A DNA stretch of 30,093 nucleotides. It comes from a virus. Its lineage: Duplodnaviria > Heunggongvirae > Uroviricota > Caudoviricetes. The DNA is taken from positions 1 through 30,093 of the IMG/VR virus record IMGVR_UViG_2802429218_000005; one strand, 5' to 3'. Under the pieces are notes generated by a model. That model saw only the letters and a list, made by a program, of their open reading frames with translations, was not told the DNA's origin and ran no database searches. This document shows, piece after piece, positions 1 through 18,350 of the stretch (its first letter is position 1; the number at the start of each line of letters is the position of its first letter). The position numbers and the translations under genes were made by a program.

Positions 1-195
1 TCTGAGACAACATCTGGCAAGGCTGGGACGGAAGTCACTGTCGTTCTCAAAATCGGTGGAGCTGCATGACAAGGTCATCGGGCATTATCTGAACATAAAA
101 CACTATCAGTAAGTTGGAGTCATTACCCTATAGCTTTATTAACCAGTGTATACATAGGATATCGTGATTTATTAAATAAAGTATTTAATAATACA

Positions 196-864
196 GTGGT
201 TAAGTGGGGCGTAACTGGCTTTACATATTCAGTATGCTTATGGATCGCAAAGTTTAAGCTTGACATAGCTTATGGTATAGCCCCAGAAAATCTTAATTAC
301 TCAACATTAGCTTATGCTTTCATGCTCTCATTTCCAATAGGAGCAATGATTTGTGCAACTACAGTCTATATATACATATTTTTGCGAGATGTATCCCCAG
401 CAAAAATAGTAATATCCTCTATGATTTCAGTATATATTGGAAACTTGGCTCAACATCATATACAGGTGAACAATCTTCCTGAAAAAATAATATTAATAGG
501 ACTCATAATTATGGTCCCCTATAACATGGTCAATCTAGCCAGTTCATTAGTTATTAAAAGGAAATTTAATTTTAATCGTTTAGTATCAGGCTTATCCCTT
601 TTTGCTGTGTCAGTTGCTCTTTTTATTATTAGCATGACAGCAATGAAATATATTGAAAGATTTCAAGAAAAGTTTATTTTTCTTGATGCAAGAACATCTA
701 CGACATGTGGTAGCCCAGAAAGCAAATCTCTTTATATTGAAAAAAATGAAAATCAGTGTTATAAAATATCAGGAAATAAATTCTCGGAGTTAAGACTAAC
801 TCTTGTAGATAAAAACATCCCGAATATAAATAATAAGGGCACTTCAACTTATGAACAAAAATAA
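196..864 (+). CDS. Hypothetical multi-pass membrane protein (AT-rich; GTG start at 196 or first in-frame ATG at 322)
   Basis: Long ORF with several hydrophobic stretches typical of TM helices; stop overlaps start of next ORF (translational coupling). No family recognised. Confidence 0.45.
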   Translation: MVKWGVTGFTYSVCLWIAKFKLDIAYGIAPENLNYSTLAYAFMLSFPIGAMICATTVYIYIFLRDVSPAKIVISSMISVYIGNLAQHHIQVNNLPEKIILIGLIIMVPYNMVNLASSLVIKRKFNFNRLVSGLSLFAVSVALFIISMTAMKYIERFQEKFIFLDARTSTTCGSPESKSLYIEKNENQCYKISGNKFSELRLTLVDKNIPNINNKGTSTYEQK

Positions 865-1078
865 CCCTGCTAATTCATTTTCTATAGAAGCAAGGAAAGA
901 AGCTTTTCGGAGAGCTGAAGCCAGTCTTTTTTTATCAAGTAAAGATCCCAAAGGCTCCTCATTTTTTAATGAAATAAAAAATAAGGTAATCAATGGAGAG
1001 CTAACCTATGAAGAGGCAAAGAGAGAAGTGTTAAATCATCACATTGAACAATCTAAAAATAAAATTAAAAAAGGCTAA
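851..1078 (+). CDS. Small charged protein with weak VbhA/YhfG-like (Fic-antitoxin-like) resemblance
   Basis: ATG at 851 overlaps stop of upstream ORF; segments RRAEASLFLSS...VINGELTYEEAKREV resemble my recollection of VbhA helices, but the inhibitory S-x-x-x-E-G motif is S-x-x-x-S-S here. Confidence 0.4.
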   Translation: MNKNNPANSFSIEARKEAFRRAEASLFLSSKDPKGSSFFNEIKNKVINGELTYEEAKREVLNHHIEQSKNKIKKG

Positions 1079-1283
1079 CATCCAGTTAGCTGTATTAGCT
1101 CAGGCTCGAACTGACAGTTTGCGTAGGCAAAATGCAACCAAATCTGACAGTCTGCTTTGAGCGAGGAGCGGACGTAGGGAATTGGTCCTTTCCCCCAACG
1201 ATAACGTGTGTTAATCAGCCGAGAGTGGGTTATGAAACGCGGTGAATAGTTATGTTCCCAGTATCGCCATATTCCAGCCACTT

Positions 1284-2669
1284 TCAACGCATGCTTTTTG
1301 CGGCCTTATCTTGCTCCCAATGTGTGACACCTTCGACCCCACGCGTCGAGTCAGATGTAAGCATCAATGGCTGTCTAAGGAAGAGCCCCATCAAATCCGG
1401 GACACGGGCAAAGTCTTGAACAGTCTCAGCCCACTCATAGTTGTCCTCTAATGGGTAATAATTAACGGCATGCAGGAAAGCACCCAACACAGTTGTTTTA
1501 GAGGCATCGTAGGCCGAGATATGCTCCATGTTTTTATCCCTACGTAGTTCTTCAATATCTATGCCTTCGCAAGTCTCATACCAAATATGCACCACGCCAG
1601 CACGATCAGGGGGAATCTGCATGACTCCATCATTGAGCAAGCTCTTGAAATGCTTGGATCTGAGGCCAAGAGAAATCTCATGATCGCAGCGCCACTGAGC
1701 TCCAACGCACTTTGCAACATCCTCTACAAAAATGTTGAGAATATCGTTATTGGTGCCAGGACGAATAACTCTCTGAGCGATAGTCGAGATACTTCGTTTC
1801 TCATTGCTATCTAGCTCCCCAAATACCAGCAATTCATGCTGTGGGCTATTGGCTCTGACTGAAAATTTTCTGTAGTGACGTCTGAGACCTAATTTGTCGA
1901 TGGCTCGTATTCCCACACTGATTGAACCTTCATTAGCTTTTCCCGTCCCCCCTTTAATGGCTAGATTCACCGCTTTAATAACGTCTGCCGGAGTCACACT
2001 GGCGACCTGCTCATGGAAAATTATATCGACAATGTTCCATGGTGCGACTTTGAGCATATGTTGGCTCAATTGATGCCAGATGTTGGCCCAGGCTTGCTCT
2101 TCTGTCTTTGAGTACTTGGTTTGCTTATCCGACCTTTTGCACTCGACGTAGAACTCCAGATCACCTAACTTGACAAGCATATCCGGTGATTTTTTGGTCT
2201 TTCCATCGGGCCAAACAATGCTGCTTTCTGGGATGAAGGCAACCTCATAGCCGTTCTTTAGGTAGAACGATGCCGTCAGCAGCTCAAAAATTTGAGTTTC
2301 TGGTTTATTGTTATTTGCTAGCATTTTGTCCAGAACATCATCGACGTATGGGACTTTGCGAAGCTGGTCTGCAACAGCTCCGATGGCCATAGCATAGGGG
2401 TAGATACGTCTGCTGCTGTAAGTAGCATCACTATATGGAAAATCATGAGACAGATACGACGCCAGAATGTACCAGTCGATGTCATCTTCTGCTGGTATGA
2501 AGAGCTGGGGCTCTATCGGCAGATTGATGTTAAACTTAGCCTCCTTCTCTCTTATGCGCTTGAAATATGCAGCTTTGCGAGCAGCCCAGGCCTCAGTTCC
2601 AAGCCTATCCACAAGCAACTGATAAAAAGCTTTTGTTCTTAAACGCTCAACACTACTGACACTATCCAT
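1284..2669 (-). CDS. Hypothetical 461-aa protein with PD-(D/E)xK-type nuclease motif (PDMLVKLGDLEFYVECK)
   Basis: Long ORF, convergent with upstream pair; motif P162-D163...E172...E176-x-K178 encoded at 2136..2186 (verified by reverse-complement translation). Confidence 0.65.
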   Translation of the reverse strand: MDSVSSVERLRTKAFYQLLVDRLGTEAWAARKAAYFKRIREKEAKFNINLPIEPQLFIPAEDDIDWYILASYLSHDFPYSDATYSSRRIYPYAMAIGAVADQLRKVPYVDDVLDKMLANNNKPETQIFELLTASFYLKNGYEVAFIPESSIVWPDGKTKKSPDMLVKLGDLEFYVECKRSDKQTKYSKTEEQAWANIWHQLSQHMLKVAPWNIVDIIFHEQVASVTPADVIKAVNLAIKGGTGKANEGSISVGIRAIDKLGLRRHYRKFSVRANSPQHELLVFGELDSNEKRSISTIAQRVIRPGTNNDILNIFVEDVAKCVGAQWRCDHEISLGLRSKHFKSLLNDGVMQIPPDRAGVVHIWYETCEGIDIEELRRDKNMEHISAYDASKTTVLGAFLHAVNYYPLEDNYEWAETVQDFARVPDLMGLFLRQPLMLTSDSTRGVEGVTHWEQDKAAKSMR

Positions 2670-2929
2670 TGCGGTCTCTCTTGGTTGTTGTATAGAGTCT
2701 TTAGCGATATATGTGATTTCAACTTATTGGAGGTATTATCCTTCAGAAATCAAAGTTTGCTACCACAAAGAAATAGAAACTCTTTATTGCATCCTGTGTA
2801 AGTATCTATCCAAGCGGACCATTAGTTTTTTTAGATATCTGACGTCCCGCAACGTCCGCTTCTGGCACAGAGCGGACTGTCAGCTTAGGTTAAGCCCTAT
2901 GATCCTACCCACGTAATATGGACACAGGC

Positions 2930-3796
2930 CTAAGCGAGGTTCTTGTTTTCAAATTGTTCCGGACTGAGGCCGCCACACCAACTGTGCCGCCGCCACCGAT
3001 TGTAATCACATTCGATATAATTAAACACCGTTGCCCGCATTATTTCCCGGCTGATAAAGTGTTCTCCATGGATACATTCCACTTTCAGCGAATGAAAGAA
3101 GCTTTCCACGCAGGCATTATCGTAGCAGCAACCTTTTGCGCTCATACTTCCACGCAGATTATGCCGCTTCAGTTGCGCCTGATAATCTGCTGAACAGTAC
3201 TGGCCTCTACGGTCCGTGTGAACGATAACGTTCCGGGGCCTCTTACGCCGCCACAGCGCCATCTGCAGGGCATCGCAGGCCAGTTGCGCCGTCATGCGTG
3301 GCGACATTGACCAGCCAATAACGGCACGTGACCACAGGTCAATGACCACTGCCAGATACAGCCAGCCTTCATCTGTACGTAAGTACGTGATGTCTCCTGC
3401 CCACTTCTGGTTCGGGCCACTGGCGTAAAAATCCTGCTCCAACAGATTTTCTGACACAGGCAGGCCGTGTGCGCGGTAGCTGACCGGGCTGAACTTCCGG
3501 GAGGCCTTTGCCCTCAGTCCCTGACGGCGCAGGCTTGCCGCCACGGTTTTTACGTTAAAGGGGTAACCCTGAGCACGCAGTTCATCCGTCAGGCGTGGGG
3601 CACCGTAACGCTGTTTTGACCGGGTAAAAGCCGCGAGGACAACGCTGTCGCAGTGTTGGCGGAACTGCTGACGCGTGCTTATCCTTGTCCGCCGCTGACA
3701 CCACGTATACCAGCCGCTGCGGGCCACCCGGAGCACGCGGCACATTGCTTTGATGCTGAACTCAGCCTGATGTTTTTCAATAAAGACATACTTCAT
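2930..3796 (-). CDS. insF: IS3 transposase OrfB (DDE catalytic component; normally expressed as OrfAB by -1 frameshift)
   Basis: Translation [32 protein letters not shown]... with integrase-core motifs ([18 protein letters not shown]); frame is -1 relative to orfA. Confidence 0.9.
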
Positions 3797-4101
3797 TTCA
3801 GGCGCTTCGCGAAGTATGTCGCGGCCTTTTGGAGGATAGCCAGCTCTTCATCCCGTTCTGCCAGCTGGCGTTTGAGACGTGCAATCTCGGTAGACATCTC
3901 CAGTTCACGTTCAGAAGACGTCTGCTGATTTTGCTGTTTACTGCGCCAGTTGTAGAGCTGTGATTCATACAGGCTGAGTTCACGGGCTGCGGCAGTAACA
4001 CCGATGCGTTCAGCAAGCTTCAGGGCTTCACTGCGAAATTCAGGCGAATGCTGTTTACGGGGTTTTTTACTGGTTGATACTGTTTTTGTCATGTGAGTCA
4101 C
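3793..4101 (-). CDS. insE: IS3 transposase OrfA (HTH component)
   Basis: Translation [35 protein letters not shown]... matches IS3 OrfA as I recall it; ATGA overlap with orfB. Confidence 0.9.
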
Positions 4102-4495: not shown

Positions 4496-5899
4496 TCAAG
4501 ATTTTTTACTGCCAGTAAAACTATCACCCTCAAACTCATCCTGTTCGTGGTTACTCTGACGATCGGCTGTGTGTTTACGTATTTGATTCGCTATTTCCCC
4601 ACCAACAGTCTGTTGTGTTCGGATAGAATTAGCACTTCCCTTCATCATCTGATACTCCGATGCTCCATTAGACAGCCCGCTCGCCATGTGAGAAGCCATG
4701 CGGCCAGCTCGTGAGAATGATGAAGCAAACCCCTGGCTTCCTCCGCTGACGCTACCTGTATTGCTCCCTGCAGAAGAACCACCGGAACCGCCTGATGGTT
4801 GTCCTCCAGAAGTATCTACGGAACCGGTATCTTCCCCGCCGCCAAATCCTCCACCTAAACCACCTTTATCACCAGAACCAGATTCTTCGGCCATCGCCGC
4901 TTGTGCAGATTCAAATGCTGCTTTTAGAGCGGAAGCACCACCACTGACTTGAGCTGTAGCGCTCATTGCCATTGCCCCAGCGCCACTGATTGCAGTAGTA
5001 GCAGCGCCAGTAATCATACCTGCTCCAAAACCACCGATCCCTTGTAAGGACGCTCCTCCAACAACGCCTGATAACAACAACGGTAATTTATTCGTCAATA
5101 CTAAAAGAATAATTGACGCCAGAAGTAAAACAATAAGACTATTAAGATCAGGAATATCATTTTTAATAATAGAAAAATACTGATCTAAAAATGATTGCCC
5201 AATCCCAATGATTAATGTCATTGTAAATAATTGAATACCAATCGATAATACTGTGCGTAAGTAATTTATTGCTATATCAGAAGTCCATTTCGAGCCACCA
5301 AACCCAAGAAAAATAACTCCTGCATAACACAACACCCATGCAGAAACTAACATTATTAGCATATTTATCGCGATAAGCGCCATTACTACTAATACTATTA
5401 TCGCGACGGTTATCATTATGGTCGAAATCATTGGAGACCAAATTGATGCCGCTGAACTGACCTTTGTTAATATCACAAAAGCTATATCAACTATGCTGGA
5501 GGGTGAAATACCAGTACTTGTTCCTAAAGCATTTGCTGCAAGTTGTCTCATTGAGTTAATTATAGATTGTGCTATGGCTGGGCCGTTGATTAAAAGATAA
5601 TAAAAAAAACCTATCACGGCAAAAAAACGAACTATTTCTGCAAGTGCATTGATTAAACCTTCCCCTTGCATCGCCAACATACCAAATGTCCAAACCATAC
5701 TGATTAATACCAGCCCCCAGAAGAGCCAATTCGCATAATCACCAATTACTAATGACCATGTGCTGGCTACTTGCTGAAACTTATCTAATAACGTATCAAG
5801 TAAACCGCTACTATCTAATTGACCAGCATAAGCATTTACAGAAAACAAAAAAATCATTCCCCAAAAAGTGAGTTTGCTTACTATTCTCATAATTACCAT
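4496..5899 (-). CDS. trbL: Conjugal transfer protein TrbL/VirB6-like (polytopic membrane protein with Gly/Ser-rich C-terminal tail)
   Basis: Multiple hydrophobic TM segments followed by a GGxGG/SGGS-rich low-complexity tail, typical of TrbL; sits in trbJ-K-L order. Confidence 0.75.
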   Translation of the reverse strand: MVIMRIVSKLTFWGMIFLFSVNAYAGQLDSSGLLDTLLDKFQQVASTWSLVIGDYANWLFWGLVLISMVWTFGMLAMQGEGLINALAEIVRFFAVIGFFYYLLINGPAIAQSIINSMRQLAANALGTSTGISPSSIVDIAFVILTKVSSAASIWSPMISTIMITVAIIVLVVMALIAINMLIMLVSAWVLCYAGVIFLGFGGSKWTSDIAINYLRTVLSIGIQLFTMTLIIGIGQSFLDQYFSIIKNDIPDLNSLIVLLLASIILLVLTNKLPLLLSGVVGGASLQGIGGFGAGMITGAATTAISGAGAMAMSATAQVSGGASALKAAFESAQAAMAEESGSGDKGGLGGGFGGGEDTGSVDTSGGQPSGGSGGSSAGSNTGSVSGGSQGFASSFSRAGRMASHMASGLSNGASEYQMMKGSANSIRTQQTVGGEIANQIRKHTADRQSNHEQDEFEGDSFTGSKKS

Positions 5900-6066
5900 T
5901 CTCGCTTAGGGCTAGGATTGTTATTACTGCGCAGGGCACATTTATCGTAGCTATGTTCGTTCAATTTATTCTCTGGCGTCGATAAACAATCGTCATCTTT
6001 TTTATCACAAGAGCATAGAATCAATGGAATGATTAGAATAAAAATGACCAAAAGTTTATCTTTCAT
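5893..6066 (-). CDS. Small lipoprotein-like ORF (57 aa), TrbK-like entry-exclusion candidate; not in supplied ORF track
   Basis: Hand translation MKDKLLVIFILIIPLILCSCDKKDDDCLSTPENKLNEHSYDKCALRSNNNPSPKREW; signal-peptide-like N-terminus with Cys; stop overlaps trbL start (GAATGGTAA); positioned between trbJ and trbL as trbK is in P-type systems. Confidence 0.4.
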   Translation of the reverse strand: MKDKLLVIFILIIPLILCSCDKKDDDCLSTPENKLNEHSYDKCALRSNNNPSPKREW

Positions 6067-6077
6067 TCAGCTATCCC

Positions 6078-6872
6078 TCACCAAATTCGCTTCGGGCTTG
6101 GTGTGTTCTCGCCAGCTAACGCTTTTTCATCAGCAACTATTTGTTGGGCCTCTTTATCGGTCTGAGCCAGCGCCAGTGTTGCTGCAGCGTTTTGTTGAGC
6201 TATCAGAAGCGAGCGGATTTGCAGCAGCTGGTTTGTTTGAGCACTGGCAAGCTGGTTAGCGGCCTGAATAGCTTCCATTTGCCCTTGCGCGCCGGTTGCC
6301 TGAGTTTGCAAATCTGTCAGGTTATCAGCATCGCTTTGCAGTGTTTCCTGCTGTTGATCGAGAGCCTTAAACACGGCGTCGTTCGCCTTTTTACGTGCCT
6401 CAGAGTTGTTCTGTTCAGCTTTACGCAGTGCGCTGATTTCATCCGCAGTACATTCAACATTACTGTTAAAGCACGGCGATGAGCGGTAGTAATTCACGTC
6501 CTGATAACGTTTCAGATATGAATCCAGACTACCGGCCTGATTTTTGTAGTAATTAAGGGTGTCCTGCGCCTGCAACAATTTGTTGATGGTCGAATTGGCC
6601 TGATCCCAGATATAGGCTGCAGGCGCGACTGTATTTTTGAGCATGTTTTCATACTGCTGCAGCTGCGTCTGGTACTGCTGGATCTGTTTAGCCACAGCCT
6701 GAACGTTATTGACTGCGCTGATTGTGGTCTGCACCACATTAGTACCATCGATGACAGGGATACCGGCTGTCGCCGGTAATGCCATGATGGATGCCAGGAA
6801 GGAAGCTGCTAAAGATTTTTTAGCTGCTAAAATCCCTCTCAGTGATGAAAATACTAGGAGCATTAACTTCAT
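6078..6872 (-). CDS. trbJ: Conjugal transfer protein TrbJ (VirB5-like)
   Basis: Signal-peptide-like N-terminus then AGIPVIDGTNVVQTTISAV and Q-rich coiled-coil region typical of TrbJ; adjacent to trbL. Confidence 0.75.
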   Translation of the reverse strand: MKLMLLVFSSLRGILAAKKSLAASFLASIMALPATAGIPVIDGTNVVQTTISAVNNVQAVAKQIQQYQTQLQQYENMLKNTVAPAAYIWDQANSTINKLLQAQDTLNYYKNQAGSLDSYLKRYQDVNYYRSSPCFNSNVECTADEISALRKAEQNNSEARKKANDAVFKALDQQQETLQSDADNLTDLQTQATGAQGQMEAIQAANQLASAQTNQLLQIRSLLIAQQNAAATLALAQTDKEAQQIVADEKALAGENTPSPKRIW

Positions 6873-6953
6873 TTGCCCACCTTAATTTTAACTGATTATT
6901 GATATTGAAAACTCGTACTTTTAACAGATACAGATATTTAGGAAGCCATAAAT

Positions 6954-7319
6954 TTATTTATCCAAGATTCTATCCATAATATTTCTTAGTTCTTGTCTGG
7001 TTGATTCTATTTTAGCAAGCAACGTTTTTATTAATGAGGGTGAAAAATCAACTGTGCGTGGATCGTTAGCTAACCACAGTTTAAGTAACCCACCAAGTCG
7101 ACCAAGATCAGCATTTACTCGGCTAAGCTCTACAACCTGATCAATATCTACAATAGACTCAACCTGATAACCCATTGCTACTTTACGAATGAAACTCGCT
7201 ACACTTAAGCCAGATGCTTCTGCATTTTCCTGGATTTGCGCTTTTTCATCTGGCAAACAATAAACTTTAATTGGTGTACTATTTTTTCTAGTCTGAGAAA
7301 CGGTCATATCATTCTCCAT
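6954..7319 (-). CDS. MobC-family relaxosome accessory (mobilisation) protein, ribbon-helix-helix type
   Basis: Motifs AEASGLSVASFIRKVAMG and RLGGLLKLWL resemble MobC family; size about 120 aa; upstream of trb genes. Confidence 0.55.
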   Translation of the reverse strand: MENDMTVSQTRKNSTPIKVYCLPDEKAQIQENAEASGLSVASFIRKVAMGYQVESIVDIDQVVELSRVNADLGRLGGLLKLWLANDPRTVDFSPSLIKTLLAKIESTRQELRNIMDRILDK

Positions 7320-7387
7320 ACAGGCGGTAGCCGATCAGCCTCGCAGAGCAGGACTCCATTGAGCAGCCCAGCTGCGAATAAGGGAAG

Positions 7388-7425
7388 GTAAAGTAGAAGC
7401 GCCGTTTACGGTGGGCCTACTTTAC
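7388..7425. repeat. 9-bp inverted repeat gtaaagtag / ctactttac with 20-nt spacer, about 70 bp upstream of MobC-like gene
   Basis: Read directly from sequence; arms are perfect reverse complements. Confidence 0.5.
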
Positions 7426-7590
7426 ATGTCCTGCCCCACTGTTGCCGTTGTATATCTGTGTACCCATTGTGTATTTCGGTGTAAGCAGTGTGTTTTTTTG
7501 ATGTATTTCTGCAGGTTTATTCATATATTAAGTGTGTAATATATGTGTTTTCTGAAAGGAAACTGATTTAAATACCAAAATTTAAGATAA

Positions 7591-7872
7591 TTATTCTTTC
7601 GGTTTTATCTTCGGTGGCCTACCTCGTTTCTTTTGAACCATTTCAGCACGCTGCATTAAATCGCGGTTTTCCAGCTCTGATTCAACAGAATTATCTATCC
7701 ACTCTTTAACATCTTCTCGACGCCACAAAAGTCGCTTATTGCCAGGAAGACGGCATCTGGGAGGGAGGCATTTAGGGTTCCGAGTTGCATCACTACGGAT
7801 ACTTTTCACTGTTTTCTTCAAAGCAAAAGCTAACTCTTCGACGGTTATAAGTTCAGGCATAACTGGTTTCAT
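7591..7872 (-). CDS. AlpA/excisionase-family HTH DNA-binding protein
   Basis: LITVEELAFALKKTVKSIR ... RLPGNKRLLWRREDVKEWI resembles HTH_17/AlpA/Xis-type regulators of integrative elements; basic C-terminal tail. Confidence 0.55.
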   Translation of the reverse strand: MKPVMPELITVEELAFALKKTVKSIRSDATRNPKCLPPRCRLPGNKRLLWRREDVKEWIDNSVESELENRDLMQRAEMVQKKRGRPPKIKPKE

Positions 7873-8180
7873 AGCAGAACCTATCTCTCAGAAAATATTT
7901 TCAGGATTTTAGCCGCTATAATTTTAGCCGCTAAATTTTGCAAACCAACGTTAAGAATTGAGAATACCCAAAAATTATCACCTGAAATATTTCTGTCAAC
8001 ACCTCAACAGCTAGAGGAAATAAAAAACCACTGGACCAGCTCTATTTTTTGTTCGTTTTTTGCACAACAATAAGGTTTTAATAAGTCTTTTAGTATTTTG
8101 GTTATATATATGGTTAAAGATCTGGTTAGAGAACAATAAAACAATAGCTAATCCGTTGTTTTGTAATTAATTTAAAAAAA

Positions 8181-8246
8181 TGCCCTACCTCATATGTCAA
8201 TAATTTGCCCCTCATATGTCATGAAATGGCCCCTCATATGTCATAA
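8181..8246. repeat. Three tandem iteron-like direct repeats, 22-bp period, core cctcatatgtca (8188, 8210, 8232)
   Basis: Direct reading: tgccctacctcatatgtcaata / atttgcccctcatatgtcatga / aatggcccctcatatgtcataa. Confidence 0.7.
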
Positions 8247-8331
8247 ACATAAAAAAACAAGCACAGGTTATAAACATAGTTACTAATAGAATTTGTGGAT
8301 AAATGCACAGGATATACGCAAAAAATATAAA

Positions 8332-8347
8332 TTGTTTAGCTAAACAA
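8332..8347. promoter_or_regulatory. Perfect 16-bp palindrome TTGTTTAGCTAAACAA (copy 1), candidate operator
   Basis: Exact self-complementary sequence; identical second copy at 8505..8520. Confidence 0.6.
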
Positions 8348-8403
8348 AATAGCAACAATAAAAATGAAACAAAATGTAAATAATGGATTTTGGCTATAGT
8401 TAC

Positions 8404-8429
8404 CCACAAAGGTTAGCTAACCTTTGTGG
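8404..8429. promoter_or_regulatory. Perfect 26-bp palindrome CCACAAAGGTTAGCTAACCTTTGTGG sharing core TTAGCTAA with the 16-bp palindromes
   Basis: Exact self-complementary sequence; followed by a 16-bp palindrome tctcataattatgaga at 8432..8447. Confidence 0.6.
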
Positions 8430-8504
8430 TATCTCATAATTATGAGAGCACCATCATTAACAACGGATATATCGAAACGAGTAACAGAAAATGCTCCTCG
8501 ATGG

Positions 8505-8520
8505 CTTGTTTAGCTAAACA
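8505..8520. promoter_or_regulatory. Perfect 16-bp palindrome TTGTTTAGCTAAACAA (copy 2), candidate operator
   Basis: Identical to copy at 8332..8347. Confidence 0.6.
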
Positions 8521-8813
8521 AATTTAAATTTTACTAAGTATGTATGAAGGGCAAAACCTGATCCCAAACAGGAAGGAATGGTCAATGGATAGGTGTTTTT
8601 GCTGCATAGCAACGCTACTCGCAATATAACCAGAAAAATAGGGATACTAAACCCGACAGGTGAGGCCGGGCTTGAGTATTTGTAGCTCTGGGCGGAGGGG
8701 ACATCCCACATTAGACGAAAAAATTCTATAATGAATTGTTGAGGTAAAGCAATTAGGTATTATCTAAAACAAGTTATCGCTGATGTAAAAGTTGTTATCT
8801 AACAAGTAGAAAG

Positions 8814-9080
8814 GTGAGAATTGTGAGGACAAAAAAGGCTGAACCAAGCACTGTAGGTGAAATACTTAATGAAGAATTCTTGAAACCCATGAATATGTCT
8901 TTATGTAAATTAGCGGAATTGACAGGAATGTCTTATAGTAGAATAAGAAAAATTATAATACATAATGATCCAATATCCATAAAAGAAGCATTATTACTTG
9001 CTGAAGTATTTCACACGGATCCGGATTTTTGGATAAACTTACAAAATGTTCATCATTACTGGCATCAAAAATGTAACTGA
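8814..9080 (+). CDS. XRE-family HTH protein, HigA-like antitoxin/antidote (solitary); alternative GTG start at 8823
   Basis: STVGEILNEEFLKPMNMSLCKLAELTGMSYSRIRKII...EALLLAEVFHTDPDFWINLQNVHHYW matches HigA/VapI-type antidote pattern; SD aaggtgag upstream of GTG 8823. Confidence 0.7.
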   Translation: MRIVRTKKAEPSTVGEILNEEFLKPMNMSLCKLAELTGMSYSRIRKIIIHNDPISIKEALLLAEVFHTDPDFWINLQNVHHYWHQKCN

Positions 9081-9134
9081 TATCAAAATCTGCCGTTAAT
9101 AATGTGTATTATCAACGGCATGTATTTAACAAGA

Positions 9135-10880
9135 TTAATTATACTCAATGCGGAATAATTTATTCTCTTGAGACAATTTCACAATGAAGTTTTTCTCATC
9201 GCTCAGTTCTTTTGGAAGTTTATCCTTCAATATAGATGCAACATACTGAATTTGAGATTTGTAACGTTCAACAAGATTAGCTATTCTGACCAGTTGATTG
9301 CCATGCATAAGTTCTTTTTTGTCATTTAACAAAAAATGGAAACAAGGAATGTTTTCTTCATCTGCAAATAAAATATATGCAATATCAAAACAAACAATTT
9401 CTCCTTGTTTTTTTCCTGAACTAAAATTGGTATTAAACGAACTGAATTTGTATATTTTTTTTCCTGTTTTTGATGCTGTAACAATATCATATTTCAAAGC
9501 ATATTGTTCACCGTATAACTCTTGAGACACAGTTGAAAAATATTTATTGAACTTATTTACTTGAGATTGAACTTCTAACTCAAAATCATCAGAAAATAAA
9601 TTATTGTTAATAGCATCAACTTGAGCGTTTAACTCTTCGATATTCTTTTCAGTTTTCTCAATTTGGTTAATAATGGCTTCGAACTCACCTTTTTTTCGGT
9701 GTTTTTCATTCAATTCTAAGACTAGTCCTTCAAGTTCATCAAACGAACCGCTTTTATTTATATTTTCAACTAATTCTTTTTCTTTGGCAAGAAGTATAGT
9801 TAAATCTTCTTGAGTTTTACTAATCTCACTAGTTATTACAGGTAATTCTTTTGATATGAATTTAACTTTTTCTTCAACCATTTGGTTGTGGAAGGAAAGT
9901 AATGATTCAAATTTTACCTGAATATTCTTTATATTATTACTGGCTTCAGTATATAGATCTTTCAATTGATTAGTGTCAATTTCCATCTTGCCACTTTCAA
10001 TATCTTTTACCGCCTCAACTATGAGTTCTTTCCGTAATTTAAGCTTACTTAATTTTGAACCTATAGTGCTCAATTGATACTTAATATCATCCAAAGCATT
10101 GAGATCATTTTCAAAGTTAGGGTTGATATAGAAAGTAGACTTTTTCAGATCTAAATCATTAATTTCCGAAATCAATAATGCTAGTGATGTCTCATATGCA
10201 GTGCGAGTTTGTTTAGACTCCAACCTATTCTTGAAGGTTGTTTCCATTCGGATGCTAGCTAACAAATTTTGTTTAAGAGCTCCTTTTCCAAAATCACATC
10301 CAAGAAGAAATAAATGAAGGGTCTCATATTCATCATCACGAGTAAATGAGCTTAGTGTTCTCAGCGTATGGGTGACACTGAGTTCTTTATATCTTATATT
10401 ATTAGATATTATTTGGGAAAAGGTAGGCTTATTACCATAATGGCCAGAAACTAATACGTCTGTTAACGTTTCTTCAAACTCTTCGATTGTTTTTTGTAGT
10501 CCATTAATTCTTCTGATACATTTTTTACGAGAGAGAAAATTTCGCTCAATGACGATGGTCTTAGCTAGCGGATCATCTAAATCCTCAACAAGTGTTAGGG
10601 TTATTAAAACCTCTGTTTCAATCAAGAAGTTTTTAACAAGTGTATATTCGCCCTTTTTAGTTTCTGGGTCAGTATAAATGCCTTTAGCATCTGCGCCTAA
10701 ACAAAAATCGACTAACATTAATACTGTTGTTTTACCAACATTATTGCCAGTGGTTTTGGTTGACTCGGTTGATGCTTCATCAACTGGCGTTTCATCAACG
10801 ATCAAATTCAAACCAGCATGAAACTTTATTAAGCGTATAACCCCATCTTTATTGGCTATCTGGAGAGATTTTATGAACAT
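9135..10880 (-). CDS. SMC/Rad50-like ABC ATPase with central coiled coil (LmuB-like / ABC-3C ATPase candidate)
   Basis: N-terminal FHAGLNLIVDE then Walker A GNNVGKTT (res 45-52); long E/K/L-rich central region; C-terminal Walker B-like ILFADEE; AT-rich; last gene of coupled 3-gene operon. Confidence 0.7.
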   Translation of the reverse strand: MFIKSLQIANKDGVIRLIKFHAGLNLIVDETPVDEASTESTKTTGNNVGKTTVLMLVDFCLGADAKGIYTDPETKKGEYTLVKNFLIETEVLITLTLVEDLDDPLAKTIVIERNFLSRKKCIRRINGLQKTIEEFEETLTDVLVSGHYGNKPTFSQIISNNIRYKELSVTHTLRTLSSFTRDDEYETLHLFLLGCDFGKGALKQNLLASIRMETTFKNRLESKQTRTAYETSLALLISEINDLDLKKSTFYINPNFENDLNALDDIKYQLSTIGSKLSKLKLRKELIVEAVKDIESGKMEIDTNQLKDLYTEASNNIKNIQVKFESLLSFHNQMVEEKVKFISKELPVITSEISKTQEDLTILLAKEKELVENINKSGSFDELEGLVLELNEKHRKKGEFEAIINQIEKTEKNIEELNAQVDAINNNLFSDDFELEVQSQVNKFNKYFSTVSQELYGEQYALKYDIVTASKTGKKIYKFSSFNTNFSSGKKQGEIVCFDIAYILFADEENIPCFHFLLNDKKELMHGNQLVRIANLVERYKSQIQYVASILKDKLPKELSDEKNFIVKLSQENKLFRIEYN

Positions 10881-11100
10881 ATTCCAATTTCCCCTTTGGA
10901 TTTAATTCAACTATTCCTGCTAGGTATAACCAGTCAAGAGATAAAACAAAAATTGATATAGACATTTCAATTTTTTTCTTTGTTTCGTAAAAAAGATCTA
11001 TCAATTCAATTTCATCGAAACGTTTCAGCGTATCTATAATAAACCCACCGTTATAATATAAGCTATCTTTAGGATGAATGTCCTTTGGTAACAACATCAT
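10849..11100 (-). CDS. Small overlapping ORF (83 aa), candidate middle component of three-gene system
   Basis: Overlaps upstream gene end and downstream gene start by 32 nt each (translational coupling); no motif recognised. Confidence 0.4.
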   Translation of the reverse strand: MMLLPKDIHPKDSLYYNGGFIIDTLKRFDEIELIDLFYETKKKIEMSISIFVLSLDWLYLAGIVELNPKGKLEYVHKISPDSQ

Positions 11101-12049
11101 TCACTCCGTTAGGGTCCCTAAAAATTTTACAGCGTATGAACGCGTCCACTGCAAGTATACTAACACAAAGCTCCAGTTCCTCTAATGGTATTTGTGTAAA
11201 ATTTGCACTTTTTCTGACCATTTCAACAGAGCTGTCAATTATTTTAAAAAATAGCTCATCTCCAGTGTATTGTGTACTCAATTTTACGAAGATAGTTCTA
11301 AAGGAAGACAAAACTGAAAGGCTTGAGTTTTTACCCATCTGGTTGAACTCTGAATAAATGCGGGATACTTTTCCATGATGGATTTTGTAATCTTCAATAA
11401 TATATTCAGCTGCATTCAAATTATTAAATGTAATCTTGTCAGTTACATCGAATGGTTGCGGGAAGTCAGTAGTTTCAACATTAGAAAAATCCTCCTTAGC
11501 TAATATATTTATAACAGCAGCAATATTTGTTTCGATTAAAACATTATCAGATTCCTCTTGTAACTCATTTTTTAGAAAACCGTGTATTTCTTTCTGTTTT
11601 GTTATGTCAAGATGTGAAATAACATTAAGTATCGATTTTACATCATGAATATCTTGCTGCGGTATAAAAACCAAAGCATGAGGATTAGTGTAAGTTTTAT
11701 TTCTTAAATCACTAGCATCTTTTGCAATTGATATAAATTTAAACTGATGGCCTTTATATAATCTTAAGTCTTTGTTCAAGGCTGAATCAATTTTTGTTTT
11801 AGTTGCAGTTGATGAAACCTGTAATACTATCTTCCCATTCTCATCGATAAGATCGATACCCTCAAAATTATGCTTCTCTTGATTAGTATTCTTTAGGGAA
11901 TACCCAAATAATAAATTAAAGAAGTGAACATAAAAATCTTCACAATGAAGATTATAGTTAAGAATATTTAACTTCCCTCTTAATTCAACGCTATAGCATA
12001 GCAACGTAAGCCTTTTCTCACATAAATCAAAATAAATAGATCTGTTCAC
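11069..12049 (-). CDS. Hypothetical 326-aa protein, candidate effector (LmuA-position) of three-gene defence-like operon
   Basis: First gene of the operon; AT-rich; no confidently recognisable catalytic motif by eye. Confidence 0.6.
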   Translation of the reverse strand: MNRSIYFDLCEKRLTLLCYSVELRGKLNILNYNLHCEDFYVHFFNLLFGYSLKNTNQEKHNFEGIDLIDENGKIVLQVSSTATKTKIDSALNKDLRLYKGHQFKFISIAKDASDLRNKTYTNPHALVFIPQQDIHDVKSILNVISHLDITKQKEIHGFLKNELQEESDNVLIETNIAAVINILAKEDFSNVETTDFPQPFDVTDKITFNNLNAAEYIIEDYKIHHGKVSRIYSEFNQMGKNSSLSVLSSFRTIFVKLSTQYTGDELFFKIIDSSVEMVRKSANFTQIPLEELELCVSILAVDAFIRCKIFRDPNGVNDVVTKGHSS

Positions 12050-12571: not shown

Positions 12572-12796
12572 TACTCCTCATGGGCAATCAGCAGTCCTCA
12601 GAGTAATGGAATGGCAGAAAGGTTCGTGAAAACGATGAAGGAAGACTACATCGCGTTCATGCCGAAACCGAATGTAAGAACGGCATTGCATAATCTTGCA
12701 GTGGCGATCGAACATTACAATGAAAACCATCCGCACAGTGCGTTGGGTTATCGCTCTCCGCGAGAATATCGACGTCAGCGGGTAACGTTAACTTAA
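12572..12796 (+). pseudogene. DDE transposase/integrase-core C-terminal fragment (IS3/IS481-like), 5'-truncated
   Basis: [18 protein letters not shown] ... [14 protein letters not shown] are C-terminal rve-domain motifs; in-frame stop immediately upstream, no N-terminal part present. Confidence 0.55.
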
Positions 12797-12837
12797 GATA
12801 CACCCCCTGTCTGGAAATAAGGGGGCAAGAACAATGA

Positions 12838-13590
12838 TCAGATTCCCTGGTGAGTAAGAATTTTACTTTCTGAACTCCTCTGAGAGTATTGACTTGGAGA
12901 AACACCAAAATAACGTCTAAATACATAAGTAAAGTATGAGACACTGACATAACCACAGACCTTAGCTACTTTACTAATAGGATAACAACGAGTGCTGAGT
13001 AAATATTCAGCCATTTGCATCCTCTCATCAAGTATGATCTTACTGAATGATACCCCCTCTTCTTTCAATTTCCTCTTTAGTAAACTTTCGCTGAGATATA
13101 ATCTTGATGATATATCCTTAAGACGCCATGGTGCAGATAAATCCGTATGAATAATCGTTTTAACTTTAGCCCCTGTGCTTTTCAAACATCCAAACAGAAA
13201 TACTCCAAATTGTTTTTCAGAAGAAAATGCAGAGAGACATGTAAAAGCAATAGACTCATCAAAAGTTTCTATGTATTCAGCACAGTGATTAGCCCAACTA
13301 ATTAATCCTTTAATTAAACTGAAGTCAGCAAAGTTTATTTTTAAATAAGATGGATATTCCCTACAATCAGAAATATCCCTTAAGTTATTAGCTTTCAAAT
13401 AGCGACTAATAAACTCAGCGCCAAAATCCGCCACTATCACTCTTTCAGGATATGTCAGGAAAAAATCTCTATAGCTAGAGTCGACAAGTACAGATAAACC
13501 TCTATCCAGAAACACACTCTCTTTTCCGAAATAAACATCAAAGGACTCCAAAATCAATATAACTGAACATGTAGTTGCCATATCATCCAC
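12838..13590 (-). CDS. AraC-family transcriptional regulator (AppY/EnvY-like subfamily)
   Basis: C-terminal HTH region WRLKDISSRLYLSESLLKRKLKEEGVSFSKIILDERMQMAEYLL...CGYVSVSYFTYVFRRYFGVSPSQY resembles AppY/EnvY as recalled; AT-rich. Confidence 0.8.
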   Translation of the reverse strand: MDDMATTCSVILILESFDVYFGKESVFLDRGLSVLVDSSYRDFFLTYPERVIVADFGAEFISRYLKANNLRDISDCREYPSYLKINFADFSLIKGLISWANHCAEYIETFDESIAFTCLSAFSSEKQFGVFLFGCLKSTGAKVKTIIHTDLSAPWRLKDISSRLYLSESLLKRKLKEEGVSFSKIILDERMQMAEYLLSTRCYPISKVAKVCGYVSVSYFTYVFRRYFGVSPSQYSQRSSESKILTHQGI

Positions 13591-14164
13591 CCAATTTAAC
13601 TGAAACCAGGATGAAGTATATGCATATAAAGTTCACTTTGCCAAACTTCAGTATAAAAAACCACATAAAAAATAGGGTGTGATAAAAAATACCGTAAAAA
13701 TAAAGCAAAGGATTATAAATTCCGTTACAGTTACAAATGATACTTAAGAAACAATTCCTTAGAAAACCTTATTTACAGCCAATAAGTAAGACACTTATAT
13801 GATATCAAGTTTTCATAAAACATAACTAGGCTAAATAGCTGCGCCTAATACCGCTACACTTTTGCCATCCCATGTTTGCCTCCGGGTATTGACCCCTTCT
13901 CTACGCAACTTCAGTTCCCACCACCAACTTTGCGGCAGCTTTGTAGGATCAATGTCTAAAAGAATAATGGTGACCGATAAGAAAACGACTGAATAACTGC
14001 AGATTTTCGCTCGAAACCTTCCTGTCAGATCCATAGCGAATCAAGTGCTGAATGTCACAGTATCGAACAGAAAACAGTGACGATCTAACCCTTCAAGAAT
14101 ATTCTACGATTGTTCTGTTTAGGAAAAGCAAGGCGGGAAGTCGGGAGATAAGTCATTGATAAAG

Positions 14165-14230
14165 TGGCGGAGAGAGGGGGATTTGACCCCCCGGTAGAGT
14201 TGCCCCTACTCCGGTTTTCGAGACCGGTCC
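14165..14230 (-). tRNA. tRNA-Ser(CGA) 3' fragment, about 66 nt, with T-arm substitution (GTTC to GGTC); serU-like att-core remnant
   Basis: Reverse complement reads GGACCGGTCTCGAAAACCGGAGTAGGGGCAACTCTACCGGGGGGTCAAATCCCCCTCTCTCCGCCA; 5' part of tRNA absent. Confidence 0.7.
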
Positions 14231-14309
14231 AATCATCAAACGAAACATAAAATTAATTCACATTATGAGGAAAAGTATCTTTTTTGTACTTGTAAATTCA
14301 AAGGCTTAG

Positions 14310-15179
<870 letters not shown>

Positions 15180-15239
15180 GTCTTTAAGTGATAAGCATAA
15201 ACCGCAGCACGATCTTCTTGCATACGACGTGCTACGGTT

Positions 15240-15794
15240 TCATTTATCTCCGACCGGAAACTTCTTATACAGTGTCGATATACCAACATCATAGATGATC
15301 GCCACCTTCTGGCGAGGAACGCCTGATGCAATTAATCGTCCGGCCTGCTCCCATTGTTCTGGTGTAAGTTTGGGGCGACGTCCACCAATTCGTCCCTGTG
15401 CGCGAGCTGCTTCTAGTCCAGCTTTTGTTCGTTCAACAATCAGTTCACGCTCCATTTCAGCCAGGGCACCCATCACATGAAAGAAAAAGCGCCCCATTGG
15501 GGTACTGGTATCAATTGAATCCGTCAGACTACGAAAGTTGATGCCTCGTTCGCGCAACTCCTCCACCAGCACGACAAGATGCCGCATACTGCGCCCCAGT
15601 CGGTCCAGTTTCCAGACCACCAGCGTGTCACCTGCCGATAATGTCCTGAGCAGCTTTTTCAGTCCTGGTCTGTCGGACTTTGTACCGCTTATCTTGTCTT
15701 CAAAAATTAGCTCACACCCTGCACAGTTCAGCGCATTGCGTTGTAGATCGGTATTCTGGTCATTTGTTGATACACGTACATAGCCAATAAGCAT
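15240..15794 (-). CDS. pin: Serine recombinase DNA invertase, Pin/Gin/Hin/Cin family
   Basis: MLIGYVRVSTNDQNTDLQRNAL...VVWKLDRLGRSMRHL...GRIGGRRPKLT nearly identical to my recollection of e14 Pin; SD AGGGGGA 5 nt upstream of ATG at 15794; track N-terminal extension is spurious. Confidence 0.9.
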   Translation of the reverse strand: MLIGYVRVSTNDQNTDLQRNALNCAGCELIFEDKISGTKSDRPGLKKLLRTLSAGDTLVVWKLDRLGRSMRHLVVLVEELRERGINFRSLTDSIDTSTPMGRFFFHVMGALAEMERELIVERTKAGLEAARAQGRIGGRRPKLTPEQWEQAGRLIASGVPRQKVAIIYDVGISTLYKKFPVGDK

Positions 15795-15847
15795 GTTAAA
15801 TCCCCCTGGTAAAAGCAGGAATGATGCCATTTGCTTGTTATTTCTTC

Positions 15848-16204
15848 ATTTTCATAAACGTTGGTTTGGGAGAAGCCAGATATGTCATTCAGCGAGGAGC
15901 TAATGCCAATGGTGCGTGGATACGCTGGTCAGATGGTGCAATAGAAGTCTTTGGAACGGGGGGTTCTAATGATAATGGACTGGCTAAAGTCGTTTATCCA
16001 ATTGCGCTACCTAAGCTTTCACGTTTTATCAGCATAGCGGAAAGAATAGGAACGGATTATGGGGGCACATCTAATAACGTTCACGTTTCAATGATCGTGG
16101 ATGACCAGGTCACTAATACCGGTTTTTATGTCCGCTGCCAGATGTACGACGGAACACCATCAACAAGTGCTTTTTCCTGGAGGGTTTATTGTGCGCCTGT
16201 TTAA
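15848..16204 (+). CDS. Alternate tail-fibre C-terminal variable segment (promoterless in present orientation)
   Basis: Frame runs through crossover site encoding NVGLGE, matching NLGLGE encoded at the other site within the expressed fibre gene. Confidence 0.5.
   Translation: MFINVGLGEARYVIQRGANANGAWIRWSDGAIEVFGTGGSNDNGLAKVVYPIALPKLSRFISIAERIGTDYGGTSNNVHVSMIVDDQVTNTGFYVRCQMYDGTPSTSAFSWRVYCAPV
15849..15874. repeat. Invertase crossover site (gix/pix-like), copy proximal to pin
   Basis: ttttcataaacgttggtttgggagaa; reverse complement TTCTCCCAAACCAACG... shares 14 bp with site at 17460 and resembles gix/hix consensus. Confidence 0.7.
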
Positions 16205-16388
16205 TCCTGTTACTTTGACTGAAGTAATCCCCGGTCTTCATGACGTGACCGGGGCTGTTGAATTACCAGAAGATAACTGGTTTTTTACTGCATCTGAAAT
16301 CCCTGAAGGAATGGAAATATCTGTTAACGAGAAGGGAGAACCCATTCTGATTGAGATTAAACCGTCTCAGGAGGAACTGGCCAGATGA
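16190..16388 (+). CDS. Short alternate tail-fibre assembly (Tfa-like) ORF, 66 aa, GTG start overlapping upstream stop
   Basis: VRLFNPVTLTEVIPGLHDVTGAVELPEDNWFF resembles Tfa N-termini; much shorter than typical Tfa. Confidence 0.4.
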
Positions 16389-16962
16389 CATCTGGCGCGG
16401 TGCTGGTATCTGTTGCCATCACCGCGTCAGTGTAATCCAGCACGGCGTTAAGTCGGGTGTTTTCTGCCTGCGTCAGCTTCCGCCCGGCCTGCAATTTCAG
16501 TTGAATCAGACTAATGGAAACCATTGCAGCATCAATCAGCGACTGCCGCTGTGTTTCTGCCATGTCTACTGCTGCTCTATGCTGTGCCTCGGTATCCGTC
16601 ACCCATTTCTCACCATCCCATTTATCGTATGGCGTTAACGGGGCGATAGTGGTTGTCTTTTCAGGGTAATCACCCGGAGCTGTGATTTCTTTTGATTCTC
16701 CTGTTTCGGTGCTATAGACGATTTCACCGCGATGGTCTGGCACATATTCCCATGAGTTAAAATCTGCAGAACGGCAAATTGCATAACCAGCTTTATATGA
16801 GCCAGGAGCATCTAAACAGGAACATGCCGGGATACCGACACCCACAGCAAGATATTCGGTTGATGTGGAAATATATTCTCGTGTTTCACCATCATAATTA
16901 TAAACGGTAATATCTCCCGCCTTTGTGGCGATGAGTTCCTTATTTAATATAGCTTTATCCAT
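16357..16962 (-). CDS. Tail fibre assembly protein (Tfa)
   Basis: Typical Tfa architecture with C-terminal ...RLNAVLDYTDAVMATDTSTAPDVIWPVPP; immediately downstream of fibre gene. Confidence 0.85.
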   Translation of the reverse strand: MDKAILNKELIATKAGDITVYNYDGETREYISTSTEYLAVGVGIPACSCLDAPGSYKAGYAICRSADFNSWEYVPDHRGEIVYSTETGESKEITAPGDYPEKTTTIAPLTPYDKWDGEKWVTDTEAQHRAAVDMAETQRQSLIDAAMVSISLIQLKLQAGRKLTQAENTRLNAVLDYTDAVMATDTSTAPDVIWPVPPETV

Positions 16963-17762: not shown

Positions 17763-17765
17763 GGA

Positions 17766-18350
17766 TTACTCCGGATATTTAAAAATTACGTAGGTATGCG
17801 AAGGGGAGAGTTTGTTAAGCACACATTCGACGACGGTGTCGCCCCAGATACGCAGCGCGGTATCACAGGGATCGCCACATGTCATCCAGGTGGTGTTGGT
17901 GGCGGCTGGCATGTTGACCTGCCAGTAATACCGCCATTCCGGCGCATTCACCGCGTCAGTACAGGCAGATGAGCAGGTGAACGTGCTTTTGTCGTATCGC
18001 GTGATGGTAGCGTCTGGTCTGCCCAGGGCAGCAAGCTGTGCAAGGTAAAAATCCTCATTGATGCCGCCCGCCAGGTTAACCTTCGCATCCAGTCGTTGCT
18101 GACGCTGGCGAAGGGTCTGTGTCCCTGCGGGAATACATTCATCCGGCAGACCGCACAGACGCTCCCAGCGGTTTATCAGTTCAGTGGTGGTGCGCGGATC
18201 CAGCTCCCGCATCAGGGCATCCGCACGCTGATGAACGCGGGTTAATGACGGTGCCGCACCGGCAATCGCCGGATCTCTGGCTGACCACGCCGGACCGGGT
18301 GGCAACAGTGCCGACAACAGACGGATGTAATCATCGTTTGTCACGTCCAT
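17766..18350 (-). CDS. Baseplate/tail protein, Mu gp48-like (YmfQ/DUF2313-like)
   Basis: Position between baseplate J-like and tail fibre; N-terminus [22 protein letters not shown] as in e14 YmfQ-type proteins as recalled. Confidence 0.75.

Follow-up and report, generated by a model that had tools for sequence, protein, structure and literature searches.

Two 12-bp cores within a cluster of palindromes to the left of an orphan higA gene are, as judged from their sequences, KorA operators (OA) of the IncP regulon, and a third core between them is a near-consensus version of the same operator. The cluster lies in a 30,093-bp stretch of DNA (the window, meaning the whole of the DNA analysed) and forms a conserved set of OA sites on a chromosomal island that has neither korA nor repA. 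The best explanation, to which we assign a probability of about 0.75, is that a full-consensus OA pair with a near-consensus third site is carried by an IncP-dependent island, on which KorA and KorB of a helper plasmid would act in trans.

The palindromes are real and are far beyond chance. A perfect palindrome, TTGTTTAGCTAAACAA, was found at 8332-8347 with a second copy at 8506-8521, and a perfect palindrome of 26 bp, CCACAAAGGTTAGCTAACCTTTGTGG, occupies 8404-8429 (sequence and repeat finder). With a 16-bp palindrome at 8432-8447 they make four, all within 8332-8521, and the whole window has no other perfect even palindrome of at least 14 bp. Shuffling the 941-bp intergenic region 2000 times with dinucleotides preserved never (0/2000) gave four palindromes of at least 16 bp, and gave one in 3.4% of cases. 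The four perfect palindromes described in the initial annotation are present, although the second 16-mer, which had been placed at 8505-8520, is one base further right. The proposal that they form a family with a shared core holds for the three that contain TTAGCTAA, but not for the palindrome at 8432-8447, which is without this core. The flanks of both 16-mers are mutually inverted, giving 27-nt arms of 85% complementarity (repeat finder). A miniature transposable element bounded by these arms was considered and rejected, because the two ends have only the 12-mers in common in the relatives.

The published consensus of OA is the 12-bp sequence 5'-GTTTAGCTAAAC-3', and KorA, a 101-residue helix-turn-helix (HTH) dimer, is a global repressor of IncP-1 plasmids (PMC2665229). 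At the composition of the window this 12-mer is expected about 0.002 times per 30 kb, whereas two exact copies were observed, 174 bp apart. The elements of the cluster are the following.

8334..8345, no strand: OA1, exact GTTTAGCTAAAC with 0 mismatches, the core of the palindrome at 8332-8347
8346..8381, no strand: A+T-rich block AAATAGCAACAATAAAAATGAAACAAAATGTAAAT beside OA1
8411..8422, no strand: central OA variant GGTTAGCTAACC with 2 mismatches to OA, the core of the 26-mer at 8404-8429
8432..8447, no strand: 16-bp palindrome TCTCATAATTATGAGA, specific to the sub-lineage of the window and not found in other lineages; probably no operator
8464..8476, no strand: invariant 13-bp block CGGATATATCGAA, a possible TrbA operator (OT)
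8508..8519, no strand: OA2, exact GTTTAGCTAAAC, the core of the palindrome at 8506-8521

The central variant departs from OA solely at the symmetric positions 2 and 11 of the 12-mer. In the crystal structure with the 18-mer CTTGTTTAGCTAAACATT, Arg48 contacts G4, and Gln53 contacts T7, C10 and T11 (PMC2665229); these four bases (18-mer numbering) are found in both half-sites of OA1, OA2 and GGTTAGCTAACC. Because the differences are limited to positions 2 and 11, every KorA-contacted base is kept in the central variant, from which we infer that it can be bound by KorA. OA1 and OA2 resemble the class I operators, the high-affinity operators that are perfectly symmetric (PMC2665229). The earlier suggestion of a multi-operator region for an HTH dimer is therefore still the best reading of the locus, since the core 12-mers equal the published operator of KorA and KorA is such a dimer.

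On IncP plasmids, GTTTAGCTAAAC with a KorB operator (OB) about 32 bp away was found at the korA promoter of the E. coli plasmid p14EC001a and at korAp and trfAp of R751. The KorA of p14EC001a keeps Arg48 and Gln53, residues of the RGAVSQ recognition motif, and its plasmid has only two TTAGCTAA cores, upstream of korA and of the kfr-region genes.

The palindrome cluster is the rightmost of several IncP-type cis sites in the intergenic region, which from left to right are the OB pair, the GGTTA repeats, three iterons, the DnaA box and the cluster itself.

7908..7935, no strand: tandem OB, TTTAGCCGCTATA and TTTAGCCGCTAAA, in the 5' leader of the gene for a 93-aa protein
8100..8131, no strand: A+T-rich GGTTA repeats of the origin, in which GGTTAAAGATCTGGTTAGAG is identical to oriV of p14EC001a
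8185..8253, plus strand: three TrfA-type iterons at 22-bp spacing, CTACCTCATATGTCA followed by two copies of GCCCCTCATATGTCA (repeat finder)
8294..8302, minus strand: DnaA box TTATCCACA (plus-strand reading TGTGGATAA), mean pairwise identity 0.92

The core of OB is TTTAGCGGCTAAA (PMC13584720). One member of the OB pair is an exact match and the other has a single mismatch; the tandem pair was found in every lineage, and it provides the OA sites with a KorB operator partner on the same DNA, about 410-585 bp away. The TrfA-type iterons at 22-bp spacing, the DnaA box and the A+T-rich repeats are the features of an IncP oriV. The identical iteron 15-mer is repeated at the oriV of p14EC001a, adjoining trfA; the iterons of R751 are CCCCTCAAGTGTCA. 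No counterpart of the A+T-rich block after OA1 (8346-8381) was found in p14EC001a, R751 or pRX7.1. The reverse complement of the 13-bp block, TTCGATATATCCG, has 11 consecutive bases in common with TTCGATATATCGT of R751, which sits 52 nt upstream of trbB and contains the sole CGATATATCG in the 50 kb of R751 examined; the block also resembles the sequence upstream of trbB in p14EC001a, given as TTTCGGTATATCGTTT and CGGTATATCG. As TrbA operators overlap the -10 of trbBp (PMC13584720), this likeness makes the block at 8464-8476 a lead that may be a TrbA operator.

The genes around the intergenic region, and the transfer origin, are those of a mobilizable element.

4496..7319, minus strand: trbL (4496-5899), a trbK-like lipoprotein gene (5893-6066), trbJ (6078-6872) and traJ (6954-7319)
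7337..7436, minus strand: IncP-type oriT (Rfam motif traJ-II, 90.1 bits, E = 1.2e-17)
7591..7872, minus strand: 93-aa excisionase/HTH_17-like protein, called AlpA-like in the initial annotation (phrog_66 'excisionase and transcriptional regulator', E = 1.6e-5)
8814..9080, plus strand: orphan HigA-family XRE protein (TIGR02607, E = 2.3e-19), the first gene to the right of the cluster

The oriT region has 88-90% nucleotide identity to the regions upstream of traJ in IncP plasmids, and TrbJ, TraJ and TrbL are 90-92%, 63% and 57% identical, respectively, to those of p14EC001a. The 93-aa protein has no Pfam or NCBIfam match of its own, some of its homologues carry PF12728, and it has no detectable homology to the AlpA of guaA-type elements. 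An ABC-three-component defence system lies to the right of higA. In the intact relatives, the element is located between an integrase gene and the tRNA-Thr gene next to proA, with variable defence cargo between higA and the tRNA gene. IS elements have truncated the island copy analysed here, which accounts for the lack of an integrase in the window; integrases are present in two relatives (L006 and L019). The cluster is part of an integrative mobilizable island of the IncP-dependent PIME or IncP-island kind, in which the trbJ and trbL homologues, traJ and the IncP-like oriT that mark such elements are all present. However, repA is absent from the window and from the thrW-type relatives examined, whereas it is present in guaA-type relatives. 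The thrW-type element is thus a replicase-less branch that departs from the published PIME definition, and it would be missed by searches that require repA.

None of KorA, KorB, IncC, TrfA, TrbA and KorC is encoded in the window, and the same six proteins are absent from the loci of relatives that jointly span the island from integrase to tRNA-Thr (NCBIfam, Pfam and tblastn in both cases). Since korA is absent in cis, the protein must come from another replicon, and an island with KorA operators but no korA probably reads the regulators of its helper plasmid.

Conservation was compared in 11 lineages retrieved without use of the motif, namely the window itself, seven E. coli lineages that came from a BLAST search with the region, two Enterobacter loci reached by way of the 93-aa protein and one locus reached by way of a 60%-identical homologue of this protein. 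Mean pairwise identity over 8174-8549 was 0.76, and it was distributed as follows.

OA1: 12 of 12 columns invariant, mean pairwise identity 1.00
13-bp block CGGATATATCGAA: 13 of 13 columns invariant, mean pairwise identity 1.00
OA2: 10 of 12 columns invariant, mean pairwise identity 0.96
36-bp block after OA1 (8346-8381): 28 of 36 columns invariant, mean pairwise identity 0.93
Central 12-mer: 5 of 12 columns invariant, mean pairwise identity 0.88
Outer arms of the 26-mer: 1 of 7 and 2 of 7 columns invariant, mean pairwise identity 0.56 and 0.81
16-mer at 8432-8447: 1 of 16 columns invariant, mean pairwise identity 0.61
Spacers: 3 of 29 columns invariant in each, mean pairwise identity 0.58-0.62

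OA2 is exact in eight of the 11 lineages and has one mismatch in the other three, and the central core is kept in 10 of 11, being lost in L008 only. This column comparison shows that selection is purifying on the 12-bp cores and acts also on the 13-bp block, and not on the long palindromes. A scan of metagenomes for two exact OAs 155-182 bp apart yielded about 25 further island-type sequences, as well as unrelated elements; the conservation of OA in this set is by construction and is not counted as evidence for the operators. Two sequences of this yield, L042 and L027, are close relatives of the lineage of the window, and in both of them the outer arms of the 26-mer and the 16-mer at 8432-8447 have decayed. 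The view that all of the long palindromes are operators has therefore to be given up: neither the palindrome at 8432-8447 nor the outer arms of the 26-mer, which are private to the sub-lineage of the window, should count as operators. Without selection, perfect long palindromes can arise through template-switch correction of quasi-palindromes, and this may perhaps be the origin of the private ones.

The same comparison bears on the idea that the palindromes serve as nucleic-acid structure, that is, as a cruciform, as a single-strand hairpin for priming after transfer, or as an RNA stem-loop. The region adjoins an origin, the 26-bp palindrome could form a hairpin of about 11 bp, and its arms vary among lineages and yet partly keep the dyad (CCACAAAGG/CCTTTGTGG versus CTTATAAA..GG/CCTTTATAAG). 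However, the inner 12 bp alone are conserved, the arms decay independently in L042 and L027, and in other lineages they need a 3-nt bulge. The searches for structure also speak against this idea: no terminator-like site was found by the consensus scan of 7850-8850, an Rfam search of 7300-9300 matched the oriT-associated traJ-II motif alone, and 8522-8815 folds no better than shuffled sequences (z = -0.28). We regard a structural role as highly improbable.

Two proteins encoded next to the cluster had been named as candidate binders, and neither fits the pattern of conservation. HigA antitoxins commonly bind palindromes in their own promoters, and the sites could be autoregulatory operators of the adjacent HigA-like XRE protein. 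In every thrW-type lineage higA is the gene next to the cluster on its right, in the short lineages OA2 comes within about 45 nt of the higA start codon, on its upstream side, and a degenerate third copy, GTTGAGGTAAAG at 8738-8749, adjoins a predicted higA-proximal promoter. But HigA proteins of the islands are 46-51% identical to that of the window and differ across the HTH, while OA1 is unchanged in all 12 of its columns; the gene is an orphan, and a search upstream of it for a remnant of higB or of a DinQ-like toxin found none; and in guaA-type islands higA comes after trbL with no OA nearby. The initial annotation had also called for the core palindromes to be sought upstream of homologous regulators: p14EC001a encodes a HigA homologue (51% identical), and the promoter of its higBA has no TTAGCTAA site. 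With the sites fitting the KorA consensus at 12 of 12 positions, autoregulation by HigA seems very improbable.

As for the 93-aa protein, its gene is always adjacent to the sites and it belongs to an HTH_17/excisionase-like family, so that recombination-directionality or activator sites might be imagined. Excisionase-type winged-helix proteins, however, usually bind direct repeats near attachment sites, not perfect dyads of 12 bp. The protein falls to 60% identity in L019 and all four sites there are the same, and close members of its family are found in unrelated filamentous-prophage contexts. Binding by this protein would make the exact match to the KorA operator a coincidence, and for either neighbour that coincidence would have to occur amid a full set of IncP cis sites. 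We consider the chance that the 93-aa protein is the binder to be slight in the extreme.

The cluster might also be a non-functional fossil of an IncP plasmid promoter region that once integrated. The window is a mosaic region of an E. coli chromosome with IS3 and IS1 scars, in which the truncated island copy lies among prophage remnants, and chromosomal KorB operators of IncP origin have a precedent in Pseudomonas putida (Chiu and Thomas 2004, as it is cited in PMC7314908). Fossils decay, however, whereas the 12-mers and the 13-bp block are invariant between spacers of 58-62% identity in E. coli, Enterobacter and metagenomic lineages. The gene order (traJ by trbJ, and the origin by higA) is stable and unlike that of any plasmid: a near-identical copy of 7880-8815 exists on 33 E. 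coli chromosomes and on no plasmids, and more diverged versions occupy up to 128 chromosomal places in E. coli. Moreover, a 936-bp query against the plasmids of PLSDB gave no match to 8332-8520 at an E-value of 0.01 or better. A fossil is improbable on these grounds, although one further point in its favor is that our promoter scans tied no promoter to the OA sites.

Those scans gave the following picture. A consensus scan of 7850-8850 detected no sigma-70 promoter, and a weight-matrix scan of nine lineages found no conserved candidate promoter overlapping OA1 or OA2. The only conserved promoter-like sites in the latter scan were these two.

7972..7999, minus strand: predicted promoter of the 93-aa gene (TTGACA, 16 nt, TAATTT), which reads through the OB pair
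8049..8076, plus strand: predicted rightward promoter, which reads into the origin and the OA cluster

The first is predicted as the best or second-best sigma-70-like site of the minus strand in all nine lineages scanned. The second reads TTGACC, 16 nt, TAAGGT in L004, L006, L009 and L010. In L011 and L014 it is weaker, and in the window it is degraded, its -35 reading TTGTTC. A lineage-specific candidate (TTGAGT, 17 nt, TAACCT) ends 13 nt before OA2 in some relatives, in a stretch that is deleted in the window; taken as a higA promoter, it would have OA2 at about +6 to +18, going by its position. In the plasmid promoters, the right half of OA plus one base (TAAACT) is the -10, 17 nt after TTGACC or TTGACG, and the island is without a good -35 at this plasmid-like distance from OA. 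A canonical OA lies over the -10 of a strong promoter; for OA1 and OA2, the scans gave no conserved sigma-70 promoter that overlaps either site. Small ORFs in 8300-8830 were not conserved; the one after OA1 that begins MKQNVN varies in length from 10 to 24 codons among lineages.

In the preferred reading, that of an IncP-dependent island using its helper's KorA and KorB, the island copies many cis sites of the helper (oriT, OB, the iterons with the DnaA box, and probably OT) and encodes none of their readers. In a cell that also has an IncP plasmid of the p14EC001a type, KorA dimers from the plasmid would occupy OA1, the central site and OA2. KorB would load as a CTP-dependent clamp at the tandem OB, slide over the intervening distance and be captured by operator-bound KorA; the helper would supply TrbA, besides KorA and KorB, to the assembly between the OB pair and the OA cluster. 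Such capture has been described for RK2, in which KorB clamps loaded at OB slide up to kilobases and are captured by operator-bound KorA or TrbA, resulting in a stable repressive complex (PMC13584720). On the island, the complex would form across the origin and up to higA, and the transcription of the region (read-through coming from the side of the origin, the higA promoter, or both) would therefore be set by the presence of the helper. We infer the cooperation with KorB and the transcription unit under control from this arrangement of sites. In the collection of complete E. coli genomes, none has both the island's origin region on the chromosome and a matching plasmid, though fewer than one is expected by chance.

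KorA and KorB are repressors, whereas helpers induce islands, and simple repression alone leaves the induction unexplained. PIMEs are reported to need IncP helpers for excision, replication and transfer, as was shown for two other PIMEs; the helpers induce excision and replication, and the inducing signal is still under investigation according to the authors of that study (bioRxiv 10.64898/2026.01.12.698999). A more ambitious and still doubtful extension is that the cluster of OA, OA variant and OT-like block, together with OB and the iterons, is a helper-sensing switch of a replicase-less IncP satellite. The helper's KorA, KorB and TrbA would in that case shut off in trans an island function that keeps the element quiescent, such as the orphan HigA-like XRE repressor, whose transcription would run across OA2; alternatively, the Kor and TrbA proteins might gate transcription into the origin. 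The origin of the island would then be fired by TrfA of the helper. In such a double-negative circuit, the repressors of the helper would themselves be the inducing signal. If the copy number is high, the sites could in addition titrate the Kor proteins and thereby derepress the transfer genes of the helper.

Several known systems resemble the island in part. The IncP-1 plasmids RK2/RP4 and R751 have the identical 12-bp GTTTAGCTAAAC, a perfect dyad of the class I type, with KorB operators TTTAGC(C/G)GCTAAA alongside. In these plasmids, however, each OA lies over the -10 of a single promoter and korA is carried in cis, with an OA-OB spacing of 32-92 bp in the RP4 promoters (PMC2665229), whereas the island has three sites within 190 bp, 410-585 bp from the OB pair, and no korA. 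The clamp system of RK2 has the same combination of an OB loading site with distal OA sites and OT-like sites at distances of the kilobase range (PMC13584720); this silencing is described within a plasmid, and on the island its target would be a satellite element, either chromosomal or excised. The putative origin of the island is like RK2 oriV with TrfA supplied in trans, in that iterons spaced by 22 bp, a DnaA box (or boxes) and A+T-rich repeats exist with no initiator gene in cis; it has only three iterons, compared with seven plus two in p14EC001a.

IncP islands and GIsul2 are IncP-dependent integrative mobilizable elements (PMC5704250). Like the present island, PIMEs, IncP islands and GIsul2 have trbJ-trbK-trbL and traJ with an IncP-like oriT; they also encode an excisionase-like regulator and an antitoxin-like HigA, carry defence cargo and are integrated at tRNA or guaA sites. 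The published PIME definition includes a replicase (repA); the thrW-type element lacks it and has iterons for a helper-type TrfA instead. Two guaA-type relatives, which do have repA, carry one or two iterons and exact OB sites, with no more than a single, degenerate OA. Neither KorA nor KorB is mentioned in the PIME preprint (bioRxiv 10.64898/2026.01.12.698999), and neither name is found in a 2017 review of integrative mobilizable elements that treats GIsul2 and IncP islands. SGI1 with its IncA/C helper is likewise a chromosomal island with cis sites for the master regulator of the helper, the AcaCD boxes (PMC5704250), and for the parABS partition system of the helper plasmid, which it hijacks (PMC10954446); by means of both it times its own functions. 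AcaCD, however, is an activator, whereas KorA, KorB and TrbA are repressors, and the logic of the present island must thus be inverted or indirect.

IncP-dependent mobilizable islands carry defence systems and resistance genes, and about a thousand putative elements of the PIME kind have been reported across Pseudomonadota. With its exact operators and iterons, and without the matching genes, the locus described here is a concrete candidate for how such islands sense their helper. If this is true, the capture of KorB sliding clamps by KorA would reach beyond control inside one plasmid and take in the cross-talk of a plasmid with a chromosomal element.

The island copy in the window is truncated and set within a mosaic (1-4101 and 12657-30093), and its location is not the tRNA-Thr/proA site that is occupied by the intact relatives. 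The features discussed here, in the numbering of the window, are as follows.

1-4101: left flank, with an IS3-family element at 2930-4101 and two unassigned ORFs
6819-6831: KorB operator (OB) with one mismatch, TTTAGCTGCTAAA, within the 5' end of trbJ
7337-7436 (-): Rfam "traJ-II RNA" motif (90 bits), directly upstream of traJ
9135-12049 (-): ABC-three-component defence system, carried as island cargo (DUF2326 protein, middle component and SMEK-domain protein)
12657-30093: right flank, with an AraC/YdeO-like regulator, a LEM-3-like GIY-YIG nuclease, a Pin-type invertase and phage tail genes (tape measure, baseplate V and tail-fibre assembly)

The cargo position is filled differently in other lineages, for example by Pycsar, by restriction-modification, or by an S8 peptidase together with an AAA ATPase.

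The 152 bp around this motif (7303-7454), which extend into the start of traJ, share 88-90% identity with the traJ region in IncP plasmids. The traJ-II motif thus coincides with the oriT region and probably represents an origin of DNA transfer, not a cis-regulatory RNA.

Immediately after the exact KorA operator OA1 lies an A+T-rich block of 36 bp (8346-8381), 28 columns of which are invariant, so that its conservation is nearly equal to that of the operators. The block includes a DnaA-box-like sequence, TGTAAATAA, and a short ORF (MKQNVN...) of variable length, and the IncP plasmids examined yielded no counterpart of the block. As a separate observation, the invariant 13-bp CGGATATATCGAA block of the island (8464-8476) is resembled (11/13) by TGGATATAACGAAAAAAC of the IncP plasmid p14EC001a. 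This plasmid has two copies of TGGATATAACGAAAAAAC, one between traJ and traK and the other just past the OB of the korA promoter (35659-35676 and 42594-42611).

Upstream of higA, the stretch 8643-8724 shows 74% identity to a repeat that is present four times in the IncP plasmid pRX7.1, in which one copy precedes dqlB, which encodes a DinQ-like type I toxin, by about 250 nt. Because the window contains no toxin ORF, the stretch looks like what is left of the control region of a type I toxin-antitoxin system. The short island lineages lack it.

The motif GTTTAGCTAAAC is also used by metagenomic elements unrelated to the island (loci L020, L024, L025, L032, L037, L041, L046, L047 and L052-L054; L026, L031 and L055). 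Some of these are segments of about 185-197 bp flanked by terminal inverted repeats of 20-24 bp that end in GTTTAGCTAAAC, and in others a unit that carries (G)GTTTAGCTAAAC(C) is repeated in tandem about every 60 bp. They may represent arrays of KorA-like operators, or centromere arrays, that belong to other plasmids.

At the position of the OB within trbJ, an exact OB exists on both p14EC001a (8468-8480) and R751 (25579-25591), and the same site also recurs among the island relatives. Two guaA-integrated relatives, E. coli HS (L015, 13480-13800) and L016 (13560-13800), both of which encode repA and a 76-aa AlpA, harbor exact OBs together with one or two TrfA-like iterons, and a single near-consensus OA, TTTTAGCTAAAC, was recognized in E. 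coli HS. Based on these sites in the guaA-integrated relatives, Kor-type sites seem to be widespread across this island family.
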